Source: Candidatus Binataceae bacterium
GTDB taxonomy: Bacteria; Desulfobacterota; Binatia; Binatales; Binataceae
NCBI GenBank assembly: GCA_015478645.1
Contig: JADMIL010000007.1
Coordinates: forward strand, 3,356-67,355
Reading direction: 5' to 3'
DNA: 64,000 nt
The position numbers and the translations under genes were made by a program. The notes beneath the pieces were generated by a model. That model saw only the letters and a program-made list of their open reading frames with translations. It did no database searches and was not told the origin of the DNA. How positions within the stretch are numbered: the first letter of the stretch is position 1; each line of letters opens with the position of its first letter. Below are positions 2,682 to 64,000 of this stretch, one piece after another.

Positions 2682-3962
2682 TCACCCTTCGCGGGTCATG
2701 GCCTCGCGATAATAGCGCCAGATTGCGCGCTGCGTGGTCTCGTCGGTCTCATGGCCGGTGAGCGCGCCGTCGGCCTCGCGGTTTTCGCGATGGAGTCCGC
2801 GGCGCAGCACCAGCCATTCGTTGACCCGCGCCTGAAAGCCGGCCTGATTGCGCTCGTAGGCCTCGAAGTCGTCGGGCGCGACGCGGCCGGCCGGTCCGTG
2901 AATCAGGTAGGTCTCGCTCAGGCGGCGATTGTTCAGTTCGGCCGGGGCGTCCTTGAGCAGCGTCGGATAATACGAGATGACGGTCTCTTCGGCGCTGACC
3001 GGCTGAATCACGCGTAACTGGTTCAAAATAAAAATGATATTCGGCGCGATGCAGAAATGCGGCGGCCCTTCCGCGATGATCCGCTGGCCGCGCGCGGCGC
3101 CGTAATGCCGCTCCATCGCGGCGCGGTACTCGTCGTATGCACCCTTGCTCCATCCGGGCGGCACGACGCGTCCGCCGTTGCGCACGTTGACCGGGTTCAG
3201 ATCGAGTTGTGCCGCGCCGTTGCCCAGATCGCGCGTCAGCGCCTCGCTGCCCTCGCCGAAGATCGTCTCCATGCTGTTCTTGCCGCGCGTCATCATCGCC
3301 ATCGCGGCATGATGCAAAATGTTCGGATGATAGCCGTCGACCGAATTTTCCAGCGCCATCTTCCAGTTGCCGCGGTACGAATGCTTGAGCACGCCCGATC
3401 GCACGACGATCTCGCCGGCTGGCGACAGGTCGACGAACTGATCGATCAGCCGCGCGCTCGCGCCCAGCCGATCCATCAGGGTCGGACCTTCGGCGCTGAG
3501 GCTCGCGAAAATGAGTCCGCGATAGGCCGCCATCCGCGGCACCCGGGCGAGCGCGTACTCGCGCTTGTTGAACGCCGTGCCGTAGCCCGCGGCGTAGGGC
3601 ACGCCGACCAGGTCGCCGCGATTATTGTAGGTCCATCCGTGATAGGCGCAGCGAAAGGCGTGCGCGTTGCCGCGTTCGCTCTGGCATACGGTGTTGCCGC
3701 GATGCATGCAGCGGTTGAGCAGCAGATGGACCTGGCCGTCCTCGTCGCGCGAGACGATAACCGGCTGCATCCCGACCTGGCGCATTACATAGTCGCCCGG
3801 CTCGGGAACTTCGCTTTCATGCGCAACGTAAATCCATTCGCGATGCCAGATGCGGTCGATTTCGTCGCGGAAGATCGCCGGATCGTAGTACACGCGCCCG
3901 TTGATGCGATCGTCGAGCACCAGCGCGCGATAGTCGACATTTGCGTTGGCCGTCGTCTCCAT
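2682..3962 (-). CDS. Rieske non-heme iron aromatic ring-hydroxylating oxygenase, alpha subunit
   Basis: A Rieske [2Fe-2S] motif CMHRG...CAYHGW. An ATG at 3962 (METTANANVDYR) is preceded by a ggagg RBS. The length is about 427 aa. Confidence 0.85.
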   Translation of the reverse strand: METTANANVDYRALVLDDRINGRVYYDPAIFRDEIDRIWHREWIYVAHESEVPEPGDYVMRQVGMQPVIVSRDEDGQVHLLLNRCMHRGNTVCQSERGNAHAFRCAYHGWTYNNRGDLVGVPYAAGYGTAFNKREYALARVPRMAAYRGLIFASLSAEGPTLMDRLGASARLIDQFVDLSPAGEIVVRSGVLKHSYRGNWKMALENSVDGYHPNILHHAAMAMMTRGKNSMETIFGEGSEALTRDLGNGAAQLDLNPVNVRNGGRVVPPGWSKGAYDEYRAAMERHYGAARGQRIIAEGPPHFCIAPNIIFILNQLRVIQPVSAEETVISYYPTLLKDAPAELNNRRLSETYLIHGPAGRVAPDDFEAYERNQAGFQARVNEWLVLRRGLHRENREADGALTGHETDETTQRAIWRYYREAMTREG

Positions 3963-4083
3963 GATCGGTCTGCCTCCGGCGCGAAATTTCCGCCCCCTGC
4001 ATCTGCTGCGCTTGCGGCGCCGGCCCGTCGGGGCGGAGGACGGGCGCGGGTGACTTACAAATTCTTGCTCCGGGCAATCCCCG

Positions 4084-4338
4084 CTATGACGTGCGCCCAT
4101 TGCGCCCGTTGGACTTTGGCATATCGGGCTCGTTGGAGATGGGCGCTTCGCGCAGATGCCGCGACGGATCGAGGAACGGCGCCAGTTCGTCGTGGCGCAC
4201 GCGCGCGAGCGCCGCCAGTTCGAGCGGATCGAGCAGCACGCGCATCCCGGTCTGCGCGTCGCGGATCAGCAGGCGCGGGCCGTTGCCGCAGTCGTCGCGC
4301 TCGATTTCGACCGAGGCAAATTCACTCGTGAGTCGCAT
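4084..4338 (-). CDS. Small hypothetical protein encoded between the Rieske beta and alpha subunit genes
   Basis: The ORF has high GC3. An ATG at 4338 (MRLTSEF...) is preceded by an aggga RBS. No recognisable domain was found. Confidence 0.4.
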   Translation of the reverse strand: MRLTSEFASVEIERDDCGNGPRLLIRDAQTGMRVLLDPLELAALARVRHDELAPFLDPSRHLREAPISNEPDMPKSNGRNGRTS

Positions 4339-4398
4339 GATTTCCCTGTCGCGCATGCTTCATTGTTGCAAGGCGCCCGCCGCATCGCCATTCATATC

Positions 4399-4899
4399 TC
4401 AGATCAGAAAAAGCATATTGGGCAGCGGCTCATCGTGATTGAGCAGCGTGACCTTCTTGTATTTGATCGCCAGGCTGCCGGCGCGCCGCACCAGCCGATG
4501 TAGCGTGCTGCCAACCCATAGCGTCTGGCGATGGCGATGCAGTTCGGCCAGGATGAAGCTCGAGTTGACGACCACCTCTGCGCCGCTTGCCTCGTCGGCG
4601 CTCAATTGCGCGGCGCCGGCTTGCGCAACCTCGATATTCGCGACCAGGCGCTTGAGCCGCGGCGCCTGCTCTTTGAGCCACAGGGTCTCTTTGAGCCGCA
4701 CGATCCGGTTGCGCAACTGGCCCCGCCGATCGTAAATCACCGACACGGTCTGCGACGGCTCGCCCTCCGGGTCGCCGCACGGCACCCAGTAGGTCGCGTC
4801 CTCGTCCCACAACGCCAGCCATTCGTCGTAGCGATGGCCGTCCATCAGGCGCGCTTCAAGATAGATAAACCGTTCGATTTCCTGGCGATCCGGCGCCAT
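4399..4899 (-). CDS. Aromatic ring-hydroxylating dioxygenase beta subunit (NTF2/SnoaL-like fold)
   Basis: An ATG at 4899 (MAPDRQEIERFIYLEARLMDGHRYDEWLALW) is preceded by a ggaga RBS. The motif is typical of the beta subunit and the length is about 166 aa. Confidence 0.75.
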   Translation of the reverse strand: MAPDRQEIERFIYLEARLMDGHRYDEWLALWDEDATYWVPCGDPEGEPSQTVSVIYDRRGQLRNRIVRLKETLWLKEQAPRLKRLVANIEVAQAGAAQLSADEASGAEVVVNSSFILAELHRHRQTLWVGSTLHRLVRRAGSLAIKYKKVTLLNHDEPLPNMLFLI

Positions 4900-5243
4900 C
4901 GCGACATCATCTCCGAGCGGCCGTGTGCCCCGGCGGGCGCGACGCGGCCGGATTGCGTAATTAATCAATGGCCTAGCAGATCAGACTCGCGATTGCACGG
5001 CGGCCCGCCCGGCCTTACGCGGCCGTGAAACATGCCCGGCCGCGTTACGTCTAACCAATAGGCCGATACGTCTTAGGCCGACGCTTTCGCGTCGCCGCGA
5101 AATAAGCCGCTTGCTCCCGCGATCGGCAAATAGGAAGATCGTTATGTGGGAAATCCGTGCCTGGAAGAATCCGGCTTACCGGAGAATCCTATTCCACGGA
5201 CGACGGCGCGCGGCTGAGGCCTATATCCCGATGACCTGTCCGA

Positions 5244-50865: not shown

Positions 50866-52299
50866 ATGGGTATCCGCAGCGGTAGCGAATTCGTCGAGAG
50901 CCTGCGCGACGCGCGCACGATCTACGCCAATGGCGAGCGCGTGCGCGACGTCACCGACTATCCGCCCTTTCGCGGCATCGTCGCCACGATGGCCTCGCTC
51001 TACGACCTTCAGCATCGGCGGCGCGACGAGCTGACCTTCCCTTCGCCGACCACCGGCGAGCCGGTCAGTGCGAGCTTTATCCTGGCCGACACGCTCGAAG
51101 CGGCCGAGCGCCGCGCGCGCGCCGAGGAGATTCGCGCCGACCATACCTTTGGCCTGATGGGGCGGATGCCCGACTTCTGCAATGCGATGGTCAGTGACGT
51201 GGTCACGGCGCGCGGCTACGTGGGCCGGCGCGAGCCGCGCTACGGCGACAATCTCCAGCGCTACTACGAGGAGGTGCGCGATCGCGACTGGTGCCTGACC
51301 CATACGCTGGTCGATCCGCAGATCGATCGATCGCGCGGGCCGGCCGAGCAGGACGATCCGTTTGCGGCGCTGCGCCTGGTGCGCGAGACCGACTCAGGAC
51401 TCATCGTGCGCGGCGCCAAGATGCTCTCGACGCTGGCGCCCTTTTCCAACGAGCTGTGGGTGGGACCGTTCTATCCGCGGCGTGCGGGCGAGGAGGCCTA
51501 CGCGCTCTGCTTCGCGATTCCCACGGCGACGCCGGGCCTCAAGTTCATCTGCCGCGAGACCTACGACGGCGGGCGCAGCAGCTTCGATCGTCCGCTCAGC
51601 TCGCGCTTTGACGAAGAGGACGCGCTGGCGGTCTTCGACGACGTGCTGGTGCCGTGGGAGCGCGTCTTCATCCATGGCGATATCGAGATCTTCAATGGCG
51701 TCCTGGCGCGCACGCCGGGCTACGCGATGTTGCAGGGTGCGATTCGCGGGATGGTCAAGCTGCGTTTTCTGGCCGGCCTCGCCTGTCATCTGGCGGACGC
51801 GATCGGGCGCAGCGCCCTGCCGCAGGTCCAGTCGCAGGTTGGCGAGCTGGTGGCCAACGCGGAGTTGGTCAGCGGACTGATCCGCGCCGGCACGCAGGAG
51901 GTCACCTGGGGCGCGACACGCGGCACGCCGCATCGCTCGCTCGCGGCGACGCTGTGGGTGATGATCCCGCAGGCGCAGATGCGCGCGGCCGAGGTCATCC
52001 GGCAGTTGAGCGGCAGCGGGCTTATCATGACGCCGACGGAAAAGGATTTCGCCAATCCCGAAATCGCCGGCTACCTGGAAAAATATCTGCGCGGCAAGGA
52101 CGTGAGCGCGCGCGATCGCGTGCAGCTCTTCAAGCTCGCCTGGGACATGATCGGCGAGCCGTTCGGCAGCCGCCAGTTGCAGTACGAATGGTTCTACTCG
52201 GGCGATCCGAATTTCACCCGCTCGCGCTTTTTCCGCTCGCCGATCACGCGCGACTTCAAGGCGATGGTCGATCGGCTGCTCAAGCCGCCCGGCGCCTGA
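50866..52299 (+). CDS. HpaB-family flavin-dependent monooxygenase (4-hydroxyphenylacetate 3-monooxygenase oxygenase component-like)
   Basis: The protein aligns along its length with HpaB (RPLSSRFDEEDALAVFDDVLVPWERVFI; LQYEWFYSG). An ATG at 50866 is preceded by a gggag RBS. The ORF-track extension would run through the repeat. Confidence 0.85.
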   Translation: MGIRSGSEFVESLRDARTIYANGERVRDVTDYPPFRGIVATMASLYDLQHRRRDELTFPSPTTGEPVSASFILADTLEAAERRARAEEIRADHTFGLMGRMPDFCNAMVSDVVTARGYVGRREPRYGDNLQRYYEEVRDRDWCLTHTLVDPQIDRSRGPAEQDDPFAALRLVRETDSGLIVRGAKMLSTLAPFSNELWVGPFYPRRAGEEAYALCFAIPTATPGLKFICRETYDGGRSSFDRPLSSRFDEEDALAVFDDVLVPWERVFIHGDIEIFNGVLARTPGYAMLQGAIRGMVKLRFLAGLACHLADAIGRSALPQVQSQVGELVANAELVSGLIRAGTQEVTWGATRGTPHRSLAATLWVMIPQAQMRAAEVIRQLSGSGLIMTPTEKDFANPEIAGYLEKYLRGKDVSARDRVQLFKLAWDMIGEPFGSRQLQYEWFYSGDPNFTRSRFFRSPITRDFKAMVDRLLKPPGA

Positions 52300-54918: not shown

Positions 54919-56391
54919 ATGCCGGACTACGACGTTATCGTGGTGGGTGCGGGCAACGCCGCGCTGGCGGCCAGCGTAGCCGCGCGCAATGCCGGTGCGG
55001 AGCGCGTCCTGGTGCTGGAAAAGGCGCCCGAGGCGATGCGCGGCGGCAATACGCATTACAGCGGCGGCCTGCTGCGCATCGCGTTCGACCGGGTCGACGA
55101 GATTTTGCACCTGGTGCCCAAGGCGCGCGAGCTGCCGGGCTTCGTCGAAGGGATCGAAGCCTACCCGCGCGACGCTTTCATGGCCGACCTCAAACGGATG
55201 ACGGCGAACCGCACCGATCCCGAGCTGGCGGAAATTCTGGTCGCCAATTCCTACGCGACCGCATCCTGGATGGCCGACCAAGGGATCCGCTTCGAGCCGG
55301 CGATCTCGCTCGGCGCGGTCCGCGTCGGCAACCTGATCAAATGGCCCAAGGGCGCGATTATCCGCGCCGTGCATGAGGGCGTGGGGCTCTCGCGGATGTG
55401 GTTCACGGCGGCCGAGCGCAAGGGCGTGACGATTCGCTACGGCGCCGCCGCGACGCGCCTGGTGCTCGACGGCGCGGGCCGCGTATGCGGTGTGGCGGTG
55501 CGCGACGCCACCGGCCTCCACGAAGTCGCGGGGCGCGCAATCGTGCTCGGCTGCGGCGGCTTCGAAGCCAACGCCGCGTGGCGCGCGCAATATCTCGGCC
55601 GCCCGTGGGACCATGCCAAGGTGCGCGGCACCCCGCATAACCAGGGTGACGGGCTGCGCATGGCGTGCGAGATCGGCGCGATGCCGTGGGGGCAATGGAG
55701 CGGATGCCACGCGACGCCGATCAATGCCGAGGCGCCGCCCTTCGGCGATCGCCAGCTCACCGACAAGACCAATCGCCTCTCGTATCCGTACGGCGTGATG
55801 ATCAACCGGGCGGGCCTGCGCTTCGTCGACGAGGGTGAGGACCAGGCGTTTTTCACCTACGCCAAGTTCGGCGGGATAATTCTCAACCAGCCCGGCGGCG
55901 TGGCGTATCAGATTTTCGATTCCAAGGTGCGCCATCTGCTCGAGCCGCGCTATGCGACCAGCGATCCGATCGCGGCGGCGAGCCTCGCCGAACTGGTCGA
56001 TCGGATCGACGTCGATCGCGAGGCTGCGCGGCGCACACTCGAGCAGTATAACGCGGCGGCCGGCGAGGGCTTGTTTAATCCGGGCGATCGCGACGGGCTG
56101 GCGACGCGCGGCCTGGCGCTGGGCAAATCCAACTGGGCGCAGCGGCTCGACACGCCGCCGTTCCTCGCGTGGCCGGTCACCGGCGGCATCACGTTCTCGT
56201 TCGGCGGCCTCAAGATCAACGATCGCGCGCAGGTCGTCGGCACCAACTGGGAGCCAATCGCGGGACTCTATACGTGCGGCGAGATGGTCGGCGGGCTGTT
56301 CCACAGCAACTATCCCGGCGGCTCGGGCCTGATGTCGGGAGCGGTCTTCGGCCGCATCGCGGGCGCCAGCGCGGCGCGCGACGGAAAATAG
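54919..56391 (+). CDS. TcuA-like FAD-dependent flavoprotein, second paralog
   Basis: The motif YDVIVVGAGNAALAASVAARNAGAERVLVLE. It is paralogous to the protein at 52311-53795. Confidence 0.8.
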   Translation: MPDYDVIVVGAGNAALAASVAARNAGAERVLVLEKAPEAMRGGNTHYSGGLLRIAFDRVDEILHLVPKARELPGFVEGIEAYPRDAFMADLKRMTANRTDPELAEILVANSYATASWMADQGIRFEPAISLGAVRVGNLIKWPKGAIIRAVHEGVGLSRMWFTAAERKGVTIRYGAAATRLVLDGAGRVCGVAVRDATGLHEVAGRAIVLGCGGFEANAAWRAQYLGRPWDHAKVRGTPHNQGDGLRMACEIGAMPWGQWSGCHATPINAEAPPFGDRQLTDKTNRLSYPYGVMINRAGLRFVDEGEDQAFFTYAKFGGIILNQPGGVAYQIFDSKVRHLLEPRYATSDPIAAASLAELVDRIDVDREAARRTLEQYNAAAGEGLFNPGDRDGLATRGLALGKSNWAQRLDTPPFLAWPVTGGITFSFGGLKINDRAQVVGTNWEPIAGLYTCGEMVGGLFHSNYPGGSGLMSGAVFGRIAGASAARDGK

Positions 56392-56407
56392 CGGGAGCAC
56401 TCGGGCG

Positions 56408-57601
56408 ATGCGGCAAGTCGGCTTGCGCGCGGTCTTCATGCGCGGCGGCACGAGCAAGGCGGTAATCTTCCGCGCCGCGGACTTGCCGCGCGATCGCGCG
56501 GATTGGACGCCAATCTTCCTCGGCGTGATCGGCAGCCCCGACCGCAACGGCCGCCAGCTTGACGGGATGGGCGGCGGGCTCTCGTCGCTCTCCAAAGTAT
56601 GCGTGGTCGGGCCGCCGAGCTGCGTGGACGCCGACGTCGATTACACCTTCGCGCAGGTCGCGATCGGCGACGCGGCGGTCGATTACAGCGGCAATTGCGG
56701 CAACATGTCGTCGGCGATCGGGCCGTTCGCGATCGATGAAGGAATCGTCGCGGCGGCGGCCGAAGGCGCGGCGACCGTGCGCATCCATAATACCAACACG
56801 CACAAGATCATCGTCGCGCGCTTTGCGGTCGCCGGCGGACGCGCCGCCGTCGATGGCGATTTCGTGCTGCCGGGCGTGGCTGGCACGGGCGCGCCAGTGC
56901 GCCTGGATTTTCTCGATCCGGGCGGCGCGGGCACCGGGCGGCTGCTGCCCACCGGCAATCCGTCCGATGAACTCGAAGTTCAGGTAAATCTACAAAATGG
57001 CACGACGGCGGCGGAACGCGTGACGGTCTCGATGGTCGATGCGGCGAATCCCTGCGTGTTCGTCGCGGCCGCGGCGCTCGGCGCGACCGGACTCGAGATG
57101 CCCGGCGAGCTCGAGGCGCGGCCCGAACTCCTGCGCCGGCTCGAGGCGATCCGGATTGCCGCGAGCCTGCGTATGGGAATCGCGCGCAGCGCCGCCGACG
57201 CGGCGCGCAAGCCCAGCATCCCCAAGGTCGCGATGGTCACCGGGCCGCGCGCCGCGACGACCCTGGCCGGCGATCGCCTCGCCGCGGACGACGCCGACCT
57301 GACCGTGCGCATGATCTCGATCGGCCAGCCGCATCGCGCGGTGCCGCTGACCGGCGCGATGTGCCTCGCGGTGGCGTCGCGGATCGATGGCAGCGTGGTC
57401 AATCGCCTCGCGCGGCGGCCCACCCCGCCCGCCGACGCGGTGCGGATTGCGCAGCCCTCGGGGCTGACCGTGGTCGGTGCGGCGGTGCGACCGATCGACG
57501 GTGGCTGGCACGCCGACCATGCGACGGTCTATCGGACCGCGCGCCGCCTGATGGAAGGAACGGTCTTCGTCCGCGCCGCCGCGTTCGCCGGCCTCGCATA
57601 A
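56408..57601 (+). CDS. PrpF-family isomerase (2-methylaconitate / 3-methylitaconate isomerase-like)
   Basis: The motifs VFMRGGTSKAVIF, GSPD..G.Q.DGMGGG and YSGNCGN are diagnostic of the PrpF/AcnD-accessory family. Confidence 0.8.
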   Translation: MRQVGLRAVFMRGGTSKAVIFRAADLPRDRADWTPIFLGVIGSPDRNGRQLDGMGGGLSSLSKVCVVGPPSCVDADVDYTFAQVAIGDAAVDYSGNCGNMSSAIGPFAIDEGIVAAAAEGAATVRIHNTNTHKIIVARFAVAGGRAAVDGDFVLPGVAGTGAPVRLDFLDPGGAGTGRLLPTGNPSDELEVQVNLQNGTTAAERVTVSMVDAANPCVFVAAAALGATGLEMPGELEARPELLRRLEAIRIAASLRMGIARSAADAARKPSIPKVAMVTGPRAATTLAGDRLAADDADLTVRMISIGQPHRAVPLTGAMCLAVASRIDGSVVNRLARRPTPPADAVRIAQPSGLTVVGAAVRPIDGGWHADHATVYRTARRLMEGTVFVRAAAFAGLA

Positions 57602-57814
57602 GCTGACCGCGTGACCCCGCAGCGATGCGGGATTCGGGCGGGCGGAACGGGCGCTGCGGACTGGCGGGTCCGGATTTGCTTGCATCGCGCGGCCCAGTTT
57701 GGGCAATCTCAAACCCTCATGGGGACGATTTTTCACAGCGCGGCGCGGACTGGCGGGTTTCACCTTCGAGCGGCGCGGGCAGTCGTGCCGGCCGGCCGCG
57801 CGGGCTAGATCGCG

Positions 57815-59395
57815 ATGGCCGCGGCACCTTCGCAAAACGCGTCGCCGCCGGAGCATGGGCCGGCCGCGGTCAACAAATGGTTGATCGCGGTCGCCGTGAT
57901 GCTCGCGACGATCATGGAGGTGCTCGACACCACCATCGCCAACGTCGCGCTGCTGCATATCCGCGGCAGCCTGTCGGCGGGCGTGGACGAGGCGGCGTGG
58001 GTGCTGACGTCGTACATCGTGGCCAACGCGATCGTGATCCCGCTGACCGGCTGGTGCGGCGCGTTCTTTGGCCGCAAGCGCTTCTTCACCTTCTCGATTC
58101 TGCTGTTCGTCACCAGCTCGCTGCTGGCCGGGGCGTCGCCCAACCTGCCGACGCTGATCTTCTTCCGCGTGCTCCAAGGGATCGGCGGTGGCGCGATGAT
58201 GCCAATGTCGCAGGCGATCCTGATGGAGACCTTTCCGCCCGAGCAGCAGGCGGTCGCGATGGCGGTGTGGGGCGTTGGCATGATGCTCGGGCCGGTGATG
58301 GGGCCGGTGCTCGGCGGATGGATCACCGACAACTACAGTTGGCGCTGGATCTTCTATATCAACGTGCCGATCGGACTGATCGCGGCGACCATGGTCGCGG
58401 TCTTCGTGCACGATCCGGATTACATCCGGCGCGGGATCAAGAAGATCGACTGGTGGGGCATCATCTTTCTGGCGATTGGCGTCGGGTTTATCCAGGTGAT
58501 GCTCGACAAGGGCGATCGGCTCGACTGGTTCAACTCCAAGCTGATCGTCGAGCTGACAGTCGTCGGCACCATCGGCGTGGCACTCTTTTTGATCCGCGAG
58601 ATGCGCACCCGGGAGCCGGTGGTCGATTTGCGAGTGCTCAACAATCGCACCTTCGCGGTCGGCACGGTCTTCACCACGATCGTGATGTTCGCGATGTACG
58701 GCACGTACGTGCTGATCCCGCTCTACTGCCAGCAAATCGCCGGTTACACGCCGCTGCAGGCGGGCTTCGTGCTGTCGATCCAGAGCTTCGGCACGTTCGC
58801 GTCGATCATGCTCGCCGGGCGCCTGTTCACGATGATGGATCCGCGCGTGCTGATCGCTGGCGGCTGCCTGATTGCGGGGTACGGCACGTGGGGGATGGCG
58901 AACTTCAATCCGCAGATCGATTTCTGGAATATCGCGATGCCCGGGATCTACCGCGGGATCGGCTCGGGCCTGATCTTCATCCCGATTACCACGCTGAGCC
59001 TGGGTGCCGTCTCGAACGAGGAGATGGGCAACGCGTCGGGGCTGTTCAACATGGTGCGGTCGGTGGGCGGCAGTATCGGGATTGCGATCCTGGTCGCGAT
59101 GGTCAGCCGGCATACGCAAATCCATCAGAGTTACCTGAGCGCGCGAATCGATCCGTTCCGCTTCCAGGAATGGAGCCATTCCAACCCCGGCATCACGGCC
59201 CAATACAACAGCTTCACCCTGCACGGGGCGGCGCCGTACCTGGGGATGATCTACCAGGAGGTGCAGCGCCAGGCGGCGATCCTGGCGTATGTCGACGACT
59301 TCCGGCTGATTTCCTATATTTTTCTGTTCCTGACGCCGCTCGCCTTTGTGATGCGGCGGCCGGCGAAGATGGGCGCCGCGCCGGCCGTGCATTGA
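57815..59395 (+). CDS. MFS transporter, DHA2 (EmrB/QacA) family, 14 TM
   Basis: N-terminal LIAVAVMLATIMEVLDTTIANVALLHI is typical of DHA2. Length 526 aa. Confidence 0.85.
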   Translation: MAAAPSQNASPPEHGPAAVNKWLIAVAVMLATIMEVLDTTIANVALLHIRGSLSAGVDEAAWVLTSYIVANAIVIPLTGWCGAFFGRKRFFTFSILLFVTSSLLAGASPNLPTLIFFRVLQGIGGGAMMPMSQAILMETFPPEQQAVAMAVWGVGMMLGPVMGPVLGGWITDNYSWRWIFYINVPIGLIAATMVAVFVHDPDYIRRGIKKIDWWGIIFLAIGVGFIQVMLDKGDRLDWFNSKLIVELTVVGTIGVALFLIREMRTREPVVDLRVLNNRTFAVGTVFTTIVMFAMYGTYVLIPLYCQQIAGYTPLQAGFVLSIQSFGTFASIMLAGRLFTMMDPRVLIAGGCLIAGYGTWGMANFNPQIDFWNIAMPGIYRGIGSGLIFIPITTLSLGAVSNEEMGNASGLFNMVRSVGGSIGIAILVAMVSRHTQIHQSYLSARIDPFRFQEWSHSNPGITAQYNSFTLHGAAPYLGMIYQEVQRQAAILAYVDDFRLISYIFLFLTPLAFVMRRPAKMGAAPAVH

Positions 59396-59646
59396 GCGGG
59401 CCGCAGCAGCCCGCGCCGTGGCCCGATCGGGTGAGCGTCGCGCGGCGGAATAGGCCAGCGTCGCGCAGCGCGTCCGGGAGTGCGTCGTGCCGCGAGATTG
59501 GCGCGGGATGGGTCGGGGCGAGCCTTGCTATGGTTCGCGCAGGATGGTACGCAAACGGCTCCCAGTGGGGGCAGGGCACGCGAGCGCGGTCGGGGGACGG
59601 CCTTGCGCCCGCTCTACACTTGGGATGAAGCGGAGAGTCTCGTCAA

Positions 59647-62073
59647 ATGGCGACTTCGAGCAGTAACGAGCCCTGGGGGCTGGGCAAGTACATTCTTCAG
59701 TATCGCGCGGCGATTGGCCTTACACTGATTGGCATCACGATCTTCATGGGCTATTGGGCGGCGAACGTGCGGATCGCGACCCGGTTCGAAAACTTCTTCC
59801 CGACCGGCCATCAAGACACCCTGCTGTATCATAAGTACCAGAATCAGTACGGCGGGGCGCAATCGCTCTATCTGCTGCTGAGGGTCAAGCACGGCGACAT
59901 CTTCAACTCGCAGACGCTGCACAAAATCCAGGACATCACGCGCGACGTCAATATACTGCCGGGCGTCGATCATAACGAAATCTTCTCGCTGGCTTCCTAT
60001 CGCGTTGCTTACAGCCACGCGATTCCGGGCGCGCTGATTTCGGACAACTACATGTATCCGAAGGTGCCCGACACGGCGGCCGGCGTCGAAGATCTGCGGC
60101 ACACCGTAATGGCGCATCGCGGTCCGGTCACGGGCCTGATTACCTACGACGACAAGGGTGCGCTGATTACCGCGACCTTTAACGAGCAGGGCCTCGACTA
60201 CAAGAAGCTGTTCGACGATATCCAGGGCATCATCAAAAAATACCAGGACGCCGACACGGAGATCTTCGTGGCGGGCCAGCCGGTCATCTCGGGCTGGGGC
60301 TATTACTACCTGACGCAGATCAAGGTGATTTTCCTCATCGCGATCACGCTGATGCTGATAATTCTCTATCTGAGCATCGGCGAACGCAGCAGTTGGTGGG
60401 CGCCCATCCTGACCGGCACCTTCTCGGCGATCTGGGGTCTCGGTTTCGTCAGCCTGATGGGCTACGACTTCGACCCGGTGATGCTGGTCATCCCGTTCAT
60501 CCTGACCGCGCGCGACTTGAGCCACGGGATCCAGTGGCAGGGGCGCTACTACGACGAGCTTGATCGGCTCGACGACAAGTTGCTGGCCTGCGCGACGACG
60601 ACCGATGTCATGCTGCCGCCGGGATTGCTCTCGATCCTGGCCGACATCGCGGGGATCATTTTCATCTCGTTCGGCGGGATCCCGGTGCTCAAGGAAATCG
60701 GCGTGGGCGGCGCGATGTGGCTGGCGGCCAGCCTCACGATGGTCTTCGTCTTCCAGCCGATCTTCATGAGCTATCTGCCGCGCCCGCGGATTCGCGAACG
60801 CAGTTGGCTGCGCCGGCGCCAGCTCAGCACGCGGCGGACGGTCTTCGGTTCGTTTGTCGACTGGGTGATCAGGATTCCGGTGACGCCGGGGGTCACGCGC
60901 ACTGCGCTGCTCGCCGGTGGCGCGCTGTTTATCGTCTTTGGCCTGGTATCGGGCCAGCGCGCGCGGATTGGCTATGAGACGCCGGGCACGCCGCTCTATC
61001 GGCAGGATTCCAAGGTCAACAAGGATATCGCGGTAATCGGCCAATACTTCCCGACCGACGTCGGGTGGGTGGTGATGTCGTCGCCGGACTATCCCGATCC
61101 GCAGTCCACGATCAGCCCGGCGGTGCTCCGGATGACCGACGATCTGGGCAACTATCTGGTGAGCCGGGGCGACGCGGTGGGCGTGATCTCGTTCGCCAAC
61201 GCCGGGATCATGCCGCTCAACATGATGTTCCACAACGGGTACCCGAAGTACCTGAGCATCCCGAACGGAACCGAGCTGGGCGGCAACCTGTGGTACATGT
61301 TCTGGGCGGGCACCGCGCCGGGCGAAATGGAGCGCTTCTTTGCCCATTCGCCGAAGATGACCAACGCGTGCATCCGCGTGTTGCTGCCGGATCATACCTA
61401 CTCGCGGCTCAACAAGGTGCGGGCCGATATCCAGCAATTCATCAACGAGCGGGTGAATACCGATCCCGCCCTGGCCAAGGTGAAACTGACCTACTTCGGT
61501 GGTGAAGCGGGCCTGTACCTGGCGGCCAACGACGTGCTCTACCGGCTGGATTTCATCAACCTGACGTTCGTGCTGCTGGTGATCTTTCTTTGCTGCGCGT
61601 TTACCTTCTGGTCGCCGACCGCCGGCGCGCTGTTTATCATCTCGTGCGTGATGGCAAATTTCGGCGCCTTCGTTTACATGAATGCGCGCAATATCGGCCT
61701 GACTATCGATACCATCCCGGTGATCTCGCTGGGGATCGGGCTCGGCGTCGATTACGGGATATACGTAGTCGCGCGAATTCGCGACGAGGTGATGGGTGGC
61801 GCGACCCTCGAGGACGCGATCACGACCGCGCTGCGATCGACCGGCGCGTCGGTCTTCAGCACCTTCGCGGTGATGATTGGCGGGATCGTGCCGTGGGCCT
61901 TTTCACCGCTGCTGTTCCACAACGAGATGAGCGTGCTGCTGATCTTCCTGATGGGCACCAACATGGTCGCCGGTGTGCTGATTCTGCCGGCGTACATCGC
62001 ATGGCGCCGTCCGCGCTTTATCATGCGCTACGCCAATCCGCCCCGCGCGGGCGCGAGTGCCGCGGCACTCTGA
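59647..62073 (+). CDS. RND-superfamily / MMPL-family membrane transporter (HpnN-like architecture)
   Basis: An 808-aa protein with two six-TM bundles, each preceded by a large periplasmic loop. A ggagag RBS. Confidence 0.8.
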   Translation: MATSSSNEPWGLGKYILQYRAAIGLTLIGITIFMGYWAANVRIATRFENFFPTGHQDTLLYHKYQNQYGGAQSLYLLLRVKHGDIFNSQTLHKIQDITRDVNILPGVDHNEIFSLASYRVAYSHAIPGALISDNYMYPKVPDTAAGVEDLRHTVMAHRGPVTGLITYDDKGALITATFNEQGLDYKKLFDDIQGIIKKYQDADTEIFVAGQPVISGWGYYYLTQIKVIFLIAITLMLIILYLSIGERSSWWAPILTGTFSAIWGLGFVSLMGYDFDPVMLVIPFILTARDLSHGIQWQGRYYDELDRLDDKLLACATTTDVMLPPGLLSILADIAGIIFISFGGIPVLKEIGVGGAMWLAASLTMVFVFQPIFMSYLPRPRIRERSWLRRRQLSTRRTVFGSFVDWVIRIPVTPGVTRTALLAGGALFIVFGLVSGQRARIGYETPGTPLYRQDSKVNKDIAVIGQYFPTDVGWVVMSSPDYPDPQSTISPAVLRMTDDLGNYLVSRGDAVGVISFANAGIMPLNMMFHNGYPKYLSIPNGTELGGNLWYMFWAGTAPGEMERFFAHSPKMTNACIRVLLPDHTYSRLNKVRADIQQFINERVNTDPALAKVKLTYFGGEAGLYLAANDVLYRLDFINLTFVLLVIFLCCAFTFWSPTAGALFIISCVMANFGAFVYMNARNIGLTIDTIPVISLGIGLGVDYGIYVVARIRDEVMGGATLEDAITTALRSTGASVFSTFAVMIGGIVPWAFSPLLFHNEMSVLLIFLMGTNMVAGVLILPAYIAWRRPRFIMRYANPPRAGASAAAL

Positions 62074-62351
62074 TCGCCCGCTCGCAAGAGTCAGTAGCGG
62101 TCTTGGTCGTTGGTACGCCGTCAATCGCGGCCGGCGATGGGGGTCGCGTCGGTGGCGATGCGTATTGACGTTGAGTGGCGTTTATACGGGACAATTAGCT
62201 AACTTGGCGTAGTTGGAAGGGACTGCTAGATGGGCCGGTCGCCGGCGCATCGCGGGCCGCGCGGTTGCGACCGCGAAGCGACGGCTATATCCTGTCGCTA
62301 CGCACTTTTTCACGTCAGCAAGCTGATTTTCAGCCGGAACAACTGAGCGAG

Positions 62352-62657
62352 TTGACTACGCCTGCGACAATTTCGATCGATTCGGTCGTGGCGGTTGCCG
62401 CGGATCAGATCTCGTGCGATCTCGACGGCGAGACGGCGATCCTCAATCTCAAGAGCGGCACCTATTACGGGCTCGATCCGGTGGGCGCGACGGTCTGGAG
62501 TCTGCTCGCGACGCCAACCACCGTGCGCGCGATCGCGGATTTGATGATCGAACGTTACGAGGTCGACCGCGCGCGCTGCGAACGCGACCTGATCGAACTG
62601 CTCGGCAAGCTCGCGGAGCGCGGCCTGATCGAGGTGCGCGATGGGCGCGCCGGCTAA
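62352..62657 (+). CDS. PqqD-family RiPP recognition protein (lasso peptide biosynthesis B1)
   Basis: The pattern ISCDLDGETAILNLKSGTYYGLDPVGATVWSLL...TVRAIADLMIERYEVD...LIELLGKLAERGLIEV matches PqqD. A TTG at 62352 gives about 101 aa. A TTG at 62265 is the alternative. Confidence 0.7.
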   Translation: MTTPATISIDSVVAVAADQISCDLDGETAILNLKSGTYYGLDPVGATVWSLLATPTTVRAIADLMIERYEVDRARCERDLIELLGKLAERGLIEVRDGRAG

Positions 62658-63168
62658 GTTGCTTGCGCTCGGGTGGCGTGATCGCGGCCTGCTAATGGCG
62701 GCGTCATGCGCGCTGGCGGGGGCGTGGATCGGGCTGCGCACGGCGGGCTTCGATGCGACGCAGCGGGCCGCCGCGGGCGCGCACAGGAGCCACGCGTGGT
62801 GCGGTCCGCCACCGCGCCGGCGGCGCATGCCGCCGTCGGCGGAGCGAATCGCATGGGCGGTGCGCGCGGCCGGCGAGTATCTTGCGGGGGGCGGCAATTG
62901 CCTGGTGCGCGCCCTGGCAACCCAGGCCCTGCTCACCCGGTACGGCTACTCCGCGCAATTGCGCATTGGCGTGCGCAAGGCGGACGACGGCGGGCTGGCG
63001 GCGCATGCCTGGCTGGAAGCGGGCGGCGCGATCGTAATTGGCGATTTCGCAATGGACGAATACACCGCGCTCGTCGCGCCCAGCGCGCGGCAGTCTGCGC
63101 TGGAACAGACCCCGGTGAGCGGCGGCAATCCGCCAGGCGGCATCGACGACACCCGTGGGGATCGCTAG
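62641..63168 (+). CDS. Lasso peptide biosynthesis B2 protein (transglutaminase-like leader peptidase)
   Basis: The motif GGGNCLVRALATQALL...AHAWLEAGGAIVIGD matches the Cys/His/Asp core of B2 proteases. It overlaps the B1 3' end by 17 nt. Confidence 0.75.
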   Translation: MGAPAKLLALGWRDRGLLMAASCALAGAWIGLRTAGFDATQRAAAGAHRSHAWCGPPPRRRRMPPSAERIAWAVRAAGEYLAGGGNCLVRALATQALLTRYGYSAQLRIGVRKADDGGLAAHAWLEAGGAIVIGDFAMDEYTALVAPSARQSALEQTPVSGGNPPGGIDDTRGDR

Positions 63169-63217: not shown

Positions 63218-64000
63218 ATGAGCGGTTTCGCCGTAATCCATCATCTGGACGGCCGCCCCGTGGAGCGCGGCACGCTCGAGCGGATGCTAGCCGCGATCGC
63301 CCATCGCGGACCCGACGGCCGCGGTATCTGGAGCGCGGGCGCGATCGCGATGGGCTTTGCGGCGTTCCATACGACGCCCGAGGCGGTGCACGAATCGCAG
63401 CCGCTGGCCGACGCGGCCGGGCGCATGCGGATCGTATTCGACGGACGGGTCGATAATCGCGAGGAGCTGGCGGCGGCGATCAGCGCCCGGGGCGCGGCGC
63501 CGCGCGACGACACCGACGCCGAGCTGGCGCTGTGCGCCTATCGATGCTTCGGCGACCAGGCTCCACTTAGAATTATCGGCGACTTCGCCTTCGTGGTGTG
63601 GGACGCCGAGCGGCGCGAACTGTTTTGCGCGCGCGATCCGATCGGGATCCGCATGTTCCATTACTGGTGCGACGGCCGCACGTTCGTGGCCGCGACCGAA
63701 CTACAGCAACTCTTCGAATATCCGGGAATGCCGGCCGAGCCCGACGAGGGCGTCGTCGGCGAGTACCTGGCGGGCACGCTGATGGGACGCGAGGCGACGC
63801 TGTTTCGCGGCCTCAAGCGGCTCCCCGCGGCCCATCTGATGGTGGTGCGCGGCGACGGTCCGCGGGTGCGGCGATATTTCGATCTGCTGCCGCGCGAATC
63901 GATAACCTATCGCGACGATACCGAGTATGCCGAGCATTTCCGCGGCCTGTTTGCCGAGGCGGTGCGATGCCGGATGCGCAGCGTGGGCGGCGTCGGCGCG
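63218..64000 (+). CDS. Lasso peptide isopeptide bond-forming cyclase (asparagine synthetase B-like); 3' end truncated by window edge
   Basis: An ATG at 63218 opens an ORF in frame 2 to the end of the window. It is absent from the ORF track because it has no stop. The AsnB N-terminal domain pattern is MSGFAVIHHLDG...AHRGPDG...DGRVDN...YLAG. Confidence 0.7.
   Translation, partial: MSGFAVIHHLDGRPVERGTLERMLAAIAHRGPDGRGIWSAGAIAMGFAAFHTTPEAVHESQPLADAAGRMRIVFDGRVDNREELAAAISARGAAPRDDTDAELALCAYRCFGDQAPLRIIGDFAFVVWDAERRELFCARDPIGIRMFHYWCDGRTFVAATELQQLFEYPGMPAEPDEGVVGEYLAGTLMGREATLFRGLKRLPAAHLMVVRGDGPRVRRYFDLLPRESITYRDDTEYAEHFRGLFAEAVRCRMRSVGGVGA

Follow-up and report, generated by a model that had tools for sequence, protein, structure and literature searches.

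The DNA analysed here, referred to below as the window, is a stretch of 64,000 nucleotides from a Candidatus Binataceae bacterium whose 3' end enters a gene cluster of the lasso peptide type. An MMPL/RND-family transporter gene on the forward strand (59647-62073; Pfam PF03176 MMPL, NCBIfam HAE3/MMPL) is followed, after a gap of 278 nt between its end at 62073 and a TTG codon at 62352, by three genes on the same strand. The first of these, B1 (62352-62657, TTG start), encodes a PqqD-like leader-recognition protein (RRE) of 101 aa that scores 73.1 bits against PF05402 (cut-off 23.4), and its best NCBIfam match is NF033536 (lasso_PqqD_Bac), which aligns from residue 10 with 73 bits, slightly below the cut-off of 80. 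The solved structure closest to this protein is TbiB1 (5V1U; E = 8.8e-15, residues 17-94). B2 (62641-63168) encodes a transglutaminase-like leader peptidase (PF13471) with 92.1 bits against NF033537 lasso_biosyn_B2 (cut-off 33). The third gene, C (63229-64000), represents the 5' part of an asparagine-synthetase-like lasso cyclase gene that is cut by the end of the window.

The remainder of the cluster is found in a second Candidatus Binataceae MAG (NCBI contig DAHVFM010000036.1, termed L001), which encodes the exact B2 protein and is identical to the window across an overlap of 3,801 nt. Here C is complete (3019-4953, 644 aa) and contains the domains PF00733 (149.6 bits), GATase_6 and GATase_7; of the NCBIfam models, that of the lasso cyclase (NF033535) fits it best, with 441.5 bits against a curated cut-off of 525, and thus below it. 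Past the point where the window ends, three further genes follow C in the order K, N and D: K codes for an HprK-like P-loop protein and overlaps C by 8 nt, N for a nucleotidyltransferase and D for an ABC exporter. K (328 aa, P-loop GEAGTGKS) has no Pfam match and resembles TIGR04352 HprK_rel_A weakly (27.5 bits, cut-off 200), N scores 176 bits against PF14907, and both PF00005 and PF00664 are found in D. With regard to the components of a lasso cluster with a split B protein, B1, B2 and C are present and a precursor gene (A) within the cluster is absent.

Related loci were compared throughout. The window clade comprises eight clusters, namely that of the window plus L001 and those of L083, L084, L086, L087, L088, L089 and L090; L002 and L085 are duplicate assemblies. 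L087 is a close relative with cluster proteins 90-98% identical to those of the window, and a further set, the 61-70% relatives, comprises loci grouped by the identity of their C protein to window C. The cluster is also found without MMPL upstream in L089 and L093, and the MMPL gene is therefore regarded as a neighbour rather than as a member of the lasso cluster. A block corresponding to 54919-62073, with FAD-binding, PrpF, TetR (opposite strand), MFS and MMPL genes, is syntenic in L084, L086, L090 and L093. B2 proteins of the window clade carry an insertion, WCGPPPxxS or more precisely (A/S)WCGPPP(R/K)(R/W)(R/S), at about residues 55-66, which is absent from the B2 proteins of L091 and L093.

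The start codon of B1

The first-pass annotation regarded the start of B1 as ambiguous between TTG 62265 and TTG 62352. This ambiguity does not survive comparison with the relatives: all nine of nine loci have TTG at the position of 62352, in-frame stops precede it in most relatives, and TTG 62265, which is in frame with B1, is the start of a -35 hexamer (see below). A third codon, GTG 62388, was chosen as the B1 start by one gene caller and was rejected, as it is not conserved and would truncate a domain that aligns from residue 10. For annotation, the start of B1 can be settled at TTG 62352.

A promoter-like motif and a predicted leader upstream of B1

The 5' two thirds of the interval (62074-62262) behave as a fast-diverging non-coding spacer, within which lie the short ORF 62137-62202 and the 5' part of a second ORF, 62230-62346. 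Positions 62074-62263 differ from L087 at ~15% of sites and by four indels (1, 1, 3 and 4 nt), and 62074-62262 cannot be aligned in the 61-70% relatives. An AT-rich, promoter-like stretch had been noticed in this interval at the outset; it does exist, at 62179-62207, but falls within the diverging spacer, and nothing in more distant relatives corresponds to it. An Rfam scan of 61800-62700 gave two sub-threshold chance matches and nothing more.

A different element is conserved. A sigma-70-like promoter motif on the forward strand (62263-62293) consists of a -35 hexamer TTGCGA (62265-62270), a 17-nt spacer and a -10 hexamer TATCCT (62288-62293). The string GGTTGC-N16-CTATAT, at 62263-62290, has a single occurrence in the 64-kb window, against a chance expectation of 0.07 when up to one mismatch is tolerated; L001, L002, L083-L087, L089 and L090 each contain exactly one copy, upstream of B1, and 82 other loci contain none. 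It is thus exact in seven of the eight window-clade clusters, and the eighth (L088) has one mismatch (CGTTGC...CGATAT). An alignment of the 140 nt upstream of B1 in nine loci shows that the spacing of the motif is fixed across the aligned window-clade loci and that the -10 hexamer in other loci reads TATGCT or TATGAT. A generic promoter and terminator scan reported nothing, which is explained by the fact that TTGCGA-N17-TATCCT matches only 8 of the 12 sigma-70 consensus positions. Because L089 keeps the motif despite a different upstream neighbour, the motif belongs to the B1 operon and not to MMPL.

From the position of this motif, transcription is predicted to start near 62300, inside the 38-aa ORF described below, which would give the B1 operon a 5' untranslated leader of ~50 nt on the forward strand (62300-62351) with few changes relative to L087. 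The whole of 62264-62351 differs from L087 by two substitutions, both of which are non-synonymous in either overlapping frame, and this near-identity points to constraint at the level of DNA or RNA rather than of protein. The leader contains a weak 4-bp stem (62330-62333/62343-62346; -3.9 kcal/mol) ~6 nt before the start codon, and eight loci share a short stem at this position, two of its pairs having double changes that both trace to one lineage. A regulatory hairpin before the TTG start was considered and not retained: the position of the stem is fixed, yet its energy and covariation are weak. Folding of the leader as a whole is not more stable than that of shuffled sequence (z = 0.28).

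By comparison of the aligned loci, 62074-62351 is non-coding DNA made up of a neutral spacer, a promoter-like motif and a predicted untranslated leader. It would, in other words, be an ordinary promoter region with its 5' leader.

The two short open reading frames

Both short ORFs singled out in the first-pass annotation are present at the coordinates it gave. The first, MGVASVAMRIDVEWRLYGTIS (62137-62202), is a part of a frame whose longest ORF starts at TTG 62110; the second, of 38 aa, MGRSPAHRGPRGCDREATAISCRYALFHVSKLIFSRNN (62230-62346, forward strand), has its TGA stop 5 nt before TTG 62352. It had been pointed out, rightly, that neither has a Thr at -2 followed by a core that begins with G, A, S or C and carries Asp or Glu at position 7-9. 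Neither contains a YxxPxL leader, neither matches the NCBIfam lasso leader and precursor models, and with NF033521 lasso_leader_L3 (cut-off 19 bits) there was no match to either at E <= 1. ORFs of 20 aa or longer are common in this ~65% GC DNA, with 98 of them overlapping its last 9 kb, and the occurrence of two such ORFs is not above chance.

The close relative L087 bears on both. A 1-nt deletion after the ATG breaks the frame of ORF 62137-62202, and a 4-nt insertion after the ATG breaks that of ORF 62230-62346, whose sole Thr is replaced by Ala. The 61-70% relatives encode nothing that resembles either ORF. The earlier statement that no precursor gene lies upstream of B1 is borne out on these grounds, both ORFs are best listed as chance ORFs, and neither 62137-62202 nor 62230-62346 should be called as a gene.

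The 38-aa ORF deserves separate consideration as a possible precursor of a highly atypical kind, translated and then processed by B1, B2 and C, as its ATG lies 8 nt downstream of a Shine-Dalgarno-like GGAAGGG and its end is very close to the start of B1. We regard this as extremely unlikely. Besides the 4-nt frameshift and the loss of the only Thr in L087 and its absence from the 61-70% relatives, the ORF contains the conserved promoter-like motif, its frame has no start codon downstream of the predicted transcription start, and it has neither YxxPxL nor a match to NF033521; its C-terminal half, where the putative core would lie, contains no Asp or Glu. A short upstream ORF coupled to B1 was likewise considered, as L083 and L084 encode MLEILESGRRGR and MIEALESGR after the -10 box, and was rejected for the window, where the frame lacks a start codon past the predicted transcription start.

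Search for a precursor gene in the window clade

Precursors were defined by a YxxPxL leader, Thr (or Ile/Val) at -2, G, A, S or C as core residue 1 and Asp or Glu at core position 7-9. Lasso precursors with Ile or Val at -2 exist (PMC10368454), and the YxxPxL regular expression was relaxed to accept any residue at this position in order to cover such cases. A leader HMM together with the relaxed expression found no precursor in the 64-kb window and the 9 kb downstream of it (L001), or in L083-L090 with flanks of up to 8 kb on each side, and recovered every positive-control precursor. In L001 no small ORF satisfies the precursor rules, and among the small ORFs located after the ABC gene in seven loci none is plausible. 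One match of the expression in the whole window, an intergenic precursor-like ORF at 51561-51671, proved to be spurious.

The scan of the flanking contig that had been proposed in the first-pass annotation therefore yields no precursor in the 9 kb downstream of the window. A precursor directly downstream of C, which it named as the finding that would overturn its view, is absent, since C and K overlap by 8 nt. Across the eight window-clade clusters the C-K junction measures from -8 to +81 nt, and apart from the promoter region no intergenic gap within the cluster exceeds 81 nt. No precursor remnant was found at the end of C, at the start of K or in the C-K gaps.

Searches of protein databases with precursor profiles gave 508 and 14 matches, and no stand-alone precursor was present among the matches listed. 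The 14 are L091-type precursors from a collection of 5.8 billion proteins, and all those whose context was read (L091-L095) sit in a C-A-K arrangement. L094 had appeared to be a stand-alone precursor, which was discounted when the locus proved to have the C-A-K arrangement, its genes having been miscalled. A scan of contigs from a genome collection gave relatives that are at most 48% identical among the matches listed, and a scan of metagenome contigs returned one locus.

These searches cover precursors with recognised leader types in genes of their own, and are blind to a precursor that overlaps another gene or has an unrecognised leader type. It is conceivable that such a gene, with a new type of leader, overlapping another gene or on the opposite strand, is present within the cluster, as the maturation machinery is under purifying selection (see below) and the clade-specific insertion in B2 could reflect a changed substrate. 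We consider this unlikely: the gaps are small, no small ORF is conserved across the eight clusters either upstream or after the ABC gene, and the resemblance of B1 to leader-binding RREs such as TbiB1 persists. The first-pass annotation had offered three places for the precursor, and of these a location outside the window is excluded for the 9 kb downstream, an atypical precursor in cis finds no support, and a precursor encoded in trans is the option that fits best.

Precursors of related clusters and loss of the ancestral C-A-K slot

More distant relatives of the cluster, with C proteins about 34-48% identical, encode precursors with the leader (K/R)PYxxPxLxEYGxVxxLT-x and a core Asp at position 7-9, and in the majority the precursor gene comes immediately after C and before K. 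Canonical precursors are found in L003, L004, L007, L008, L009, L010, L020 and L027 among the distant relatives and in L091-L095, the nearest outgroups. A is located upstream of K in 11 of the 13 precursor-bearing loci, and directly between C and K in all five outgroups.

The nearest outgroups L091 and L093, whose C proteins are 53-54% identical to window C, are particularly informative. L091 shows the same synteny as the window, MFS-MMPL-B1-B2-C...K-N-D, and L093 has the same cluster order with FAD-binding, PrpF and MFS genes upstream and without MMPL. Both of them, together with the fragments L092, L094 and L095, encode a precursor of 57 to 60 aa between C and K. In L091 this precursor (60 aa) lies in a lower-GC gap of 565 nt between the two genes, where the window clade has at most 81 nt; the end of its leader is ...KKSTYQTPTITDYGDVTRLTQ, also given as ...YQTPTITDYGDVTRLTQ, followed by the core AKGTSVDTNGGQGFNKHPYG. 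The bit scores of the L091, L093 and L007 precursors with NF033521 are 23.5, 24.9 and 22.8, respectively, all above the cut-off of 19. On this comparison the absence of A in the window clade is real and dates to one deletion, by which the ancestral C-K slot collapsed.

Several features of these precursor genes are recorded here in their own right. Gln occupies predicted core position 1 (...RLTQ/QKGTxxD..., the slash preceding this position) in L093 (10228-10410) and in P0243, P0249 and P0251, where sister sequences have Ala or Gly; several nearest-outgroup precursors thus depart from the rule that the ring-forming residue is usually G, A, S or C. Most precursors of the wider family (P0121-P0240) share a conserved C terminus and end in Cys-Leu, or in a Met-rich tail plus Cys-Leu (e.g. 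...GMGMGMCL). The L091 precursor gene is preceded by a near-perfect palindrome, TTGACAAG-N11-CTTGTCAA (L091 10095-10121), that overlaps a consensus -35 TTGACA, and a counterpart with CTAGTCAA is present at about 325-351 in L094. This palindrome could serve as an operator at a promoter that belongs to the precursor gene itself.

Selection on the maturation enzymes

Loss of A raises the question of whether the remaining genes are a non-functional remnant, either decaying or kept by chance alone; the missing precursor gene, with no replacement in the 64 kb upstream and 9 kb downstream, speaks for this reading. The enzymes themselves argue against it. Relative to L087, the dN/dS values of B1, B2, C, K, N and D are 0.16-0.29, and they are 0.19-0.39 relative to relatives at saturated synonymous distance (dS around 1). 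All six genes are single intact ORFs in seven of the eight window-clade clusters. Cys87 and His122 of B2 are invariant across the clade and in all seven sequences compared, the SGGxDS motif of C is invariant too, B1 is still TbiB1-like, and promoter motif and TTG start have both been kept. We therefore regard a decaying or accidental remnant as improbable, and by sequence criteria the cluster is still in use. In L088 (5205-13062), a nanopore-derived contig, three genes (MMPL, N and ABC) are each broken up into pieces; these splits are probably assembly frameshifts rather than real pseudogenes.

A probable substrate encoded elsewhere in the genome

Since A is absent from the clusters of the clade and the enzymes are under purifying selection, their substrate is probably encoded elsewhere in the genome, and it is on these two observations that we infer the existence of a precursor in trans. 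The sequence of events that we propose is as follows. In the ancestor of the Binataceae window clade the precursor gene A would have been deleted from the C-K slot; the six genes B1, B2, C, K, N and D would have persisted intact and under purifying selection after this loss; and the lasso peptide that the enzymes now mature would derive from a precursor gene at another site in the genome. To this account as a whole, in which the interval upstream of B1 is a promoter and leader, A was deleted from the C-K slot and the enzymes most likely serve a precursor elsewhere, we assign a probability of roughly 0.7.

The enzymes might instead have been recruited to a non-classical substrate, for example the terminus of a larger protein. 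The lack of a precursor in cis, the clade-specific insertion in B2 and the weak relationship of K to HprK (27.5 bits against a cut-off of 200) would be compatible with recruitment of this kind, but gene content and order are otherwise the same as in the outgroups that have a standard precursor, and we consider it very unlikely.

With regard to a precursor encoded in trans, two other Binataceae loci are of interest. L008 (7196-13231) and L007 (7260-13240) encode a lasso cyclase, a precursor (core AKSIAGSDGTQTGKN or AKSPGASDGTPGSHHDVGA), K and N. Neither B1 nor B2 was detected within 10 kb on each side in L008, or within 10 kb upstream and about 3.5 kb downstream in L007; the B1 profile finds B1 in all nine of the other distant relatives, and the B2 profile finds B2 in eight of the nine, missing L020. 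Two ORFs upstream of C in L008 encode signal-peptide proteins without a family match. The arrangement of these loci mirrors that of the window cluster, with a precursor but without B1 and B2 in the one case, and with B1 and B2 but without a precursor in the other. To judge by their accession blocks, the L007-type and window-type loci compared here come from different assemblies. That the window clade matures a peptide encoded elsewhere in the genome, with an L007/L008-type locus as one candidate partner, is a tentative suggestion that we hold to be possible rather than probable. If the two types of locus co-occur in one genome, they would constitute a split lasso pathway in which B1/B2 and the substrate gene reside at different loci.

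Genome mining of the RODEO kind usually counts a lasso cluster without a precursor as a failure of detection. Here the absence of the precursor is common to at least eight diverged clusters with enzymes under purifying selection, and the window clade lends itself to a clean test of whether the enzymes of lasso maturation are able to act on a precursor that is encoded elsewhere.

Comparison with known lasso peptide systems

Lasso clusters with a kinase and a nucleotidyltransferase include those of paeninodin and pseudomycoidin and the bsf cluster of Bradymonas sediminis, which comprises A, B1, B2, C and D together with K and N (PMC8498205, PMC10368454). The window cluster resembles this group in possessing a discrete PqqD-like B1, B2, C, a nucleotidyltransferase of PF14907 and an ABC exporter, next to a P-loop protein with some likeness to HprK, and its relatives likewise carry precursors with a YxxPxL leader. 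In contrast to paeninodin, pseudomycoidin and bsf, it has no precursor gene in or near the cluster, and its K protein matches the HprK models weakly. The cores of the outgroup precursors also differ in lacking a terminal Ser, which is the residue phosphorylated by the paeninodin-type kinases.

The sister clusters L091, L093 and L095 show the order B1-B2-C-A-K-N-D, and L091 has the same neighbourhood as the window, with proteins that are 44-58% identical to those of the window. All three keep the precursor, whereas the window clade has nothing like the C-K gap of L091. The closest solved structure to window B1, TbiB1 (PDB 5V1U/5V1V), is the leader-recognition protein of a Thermobaculum lasso pathway and, unlike window B1, has a known leader partner encoded in cis. 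Seen against these systems, a precursor-less lasso clade in which the deletion can be traced is a variation of modest interest on a system that is well known.
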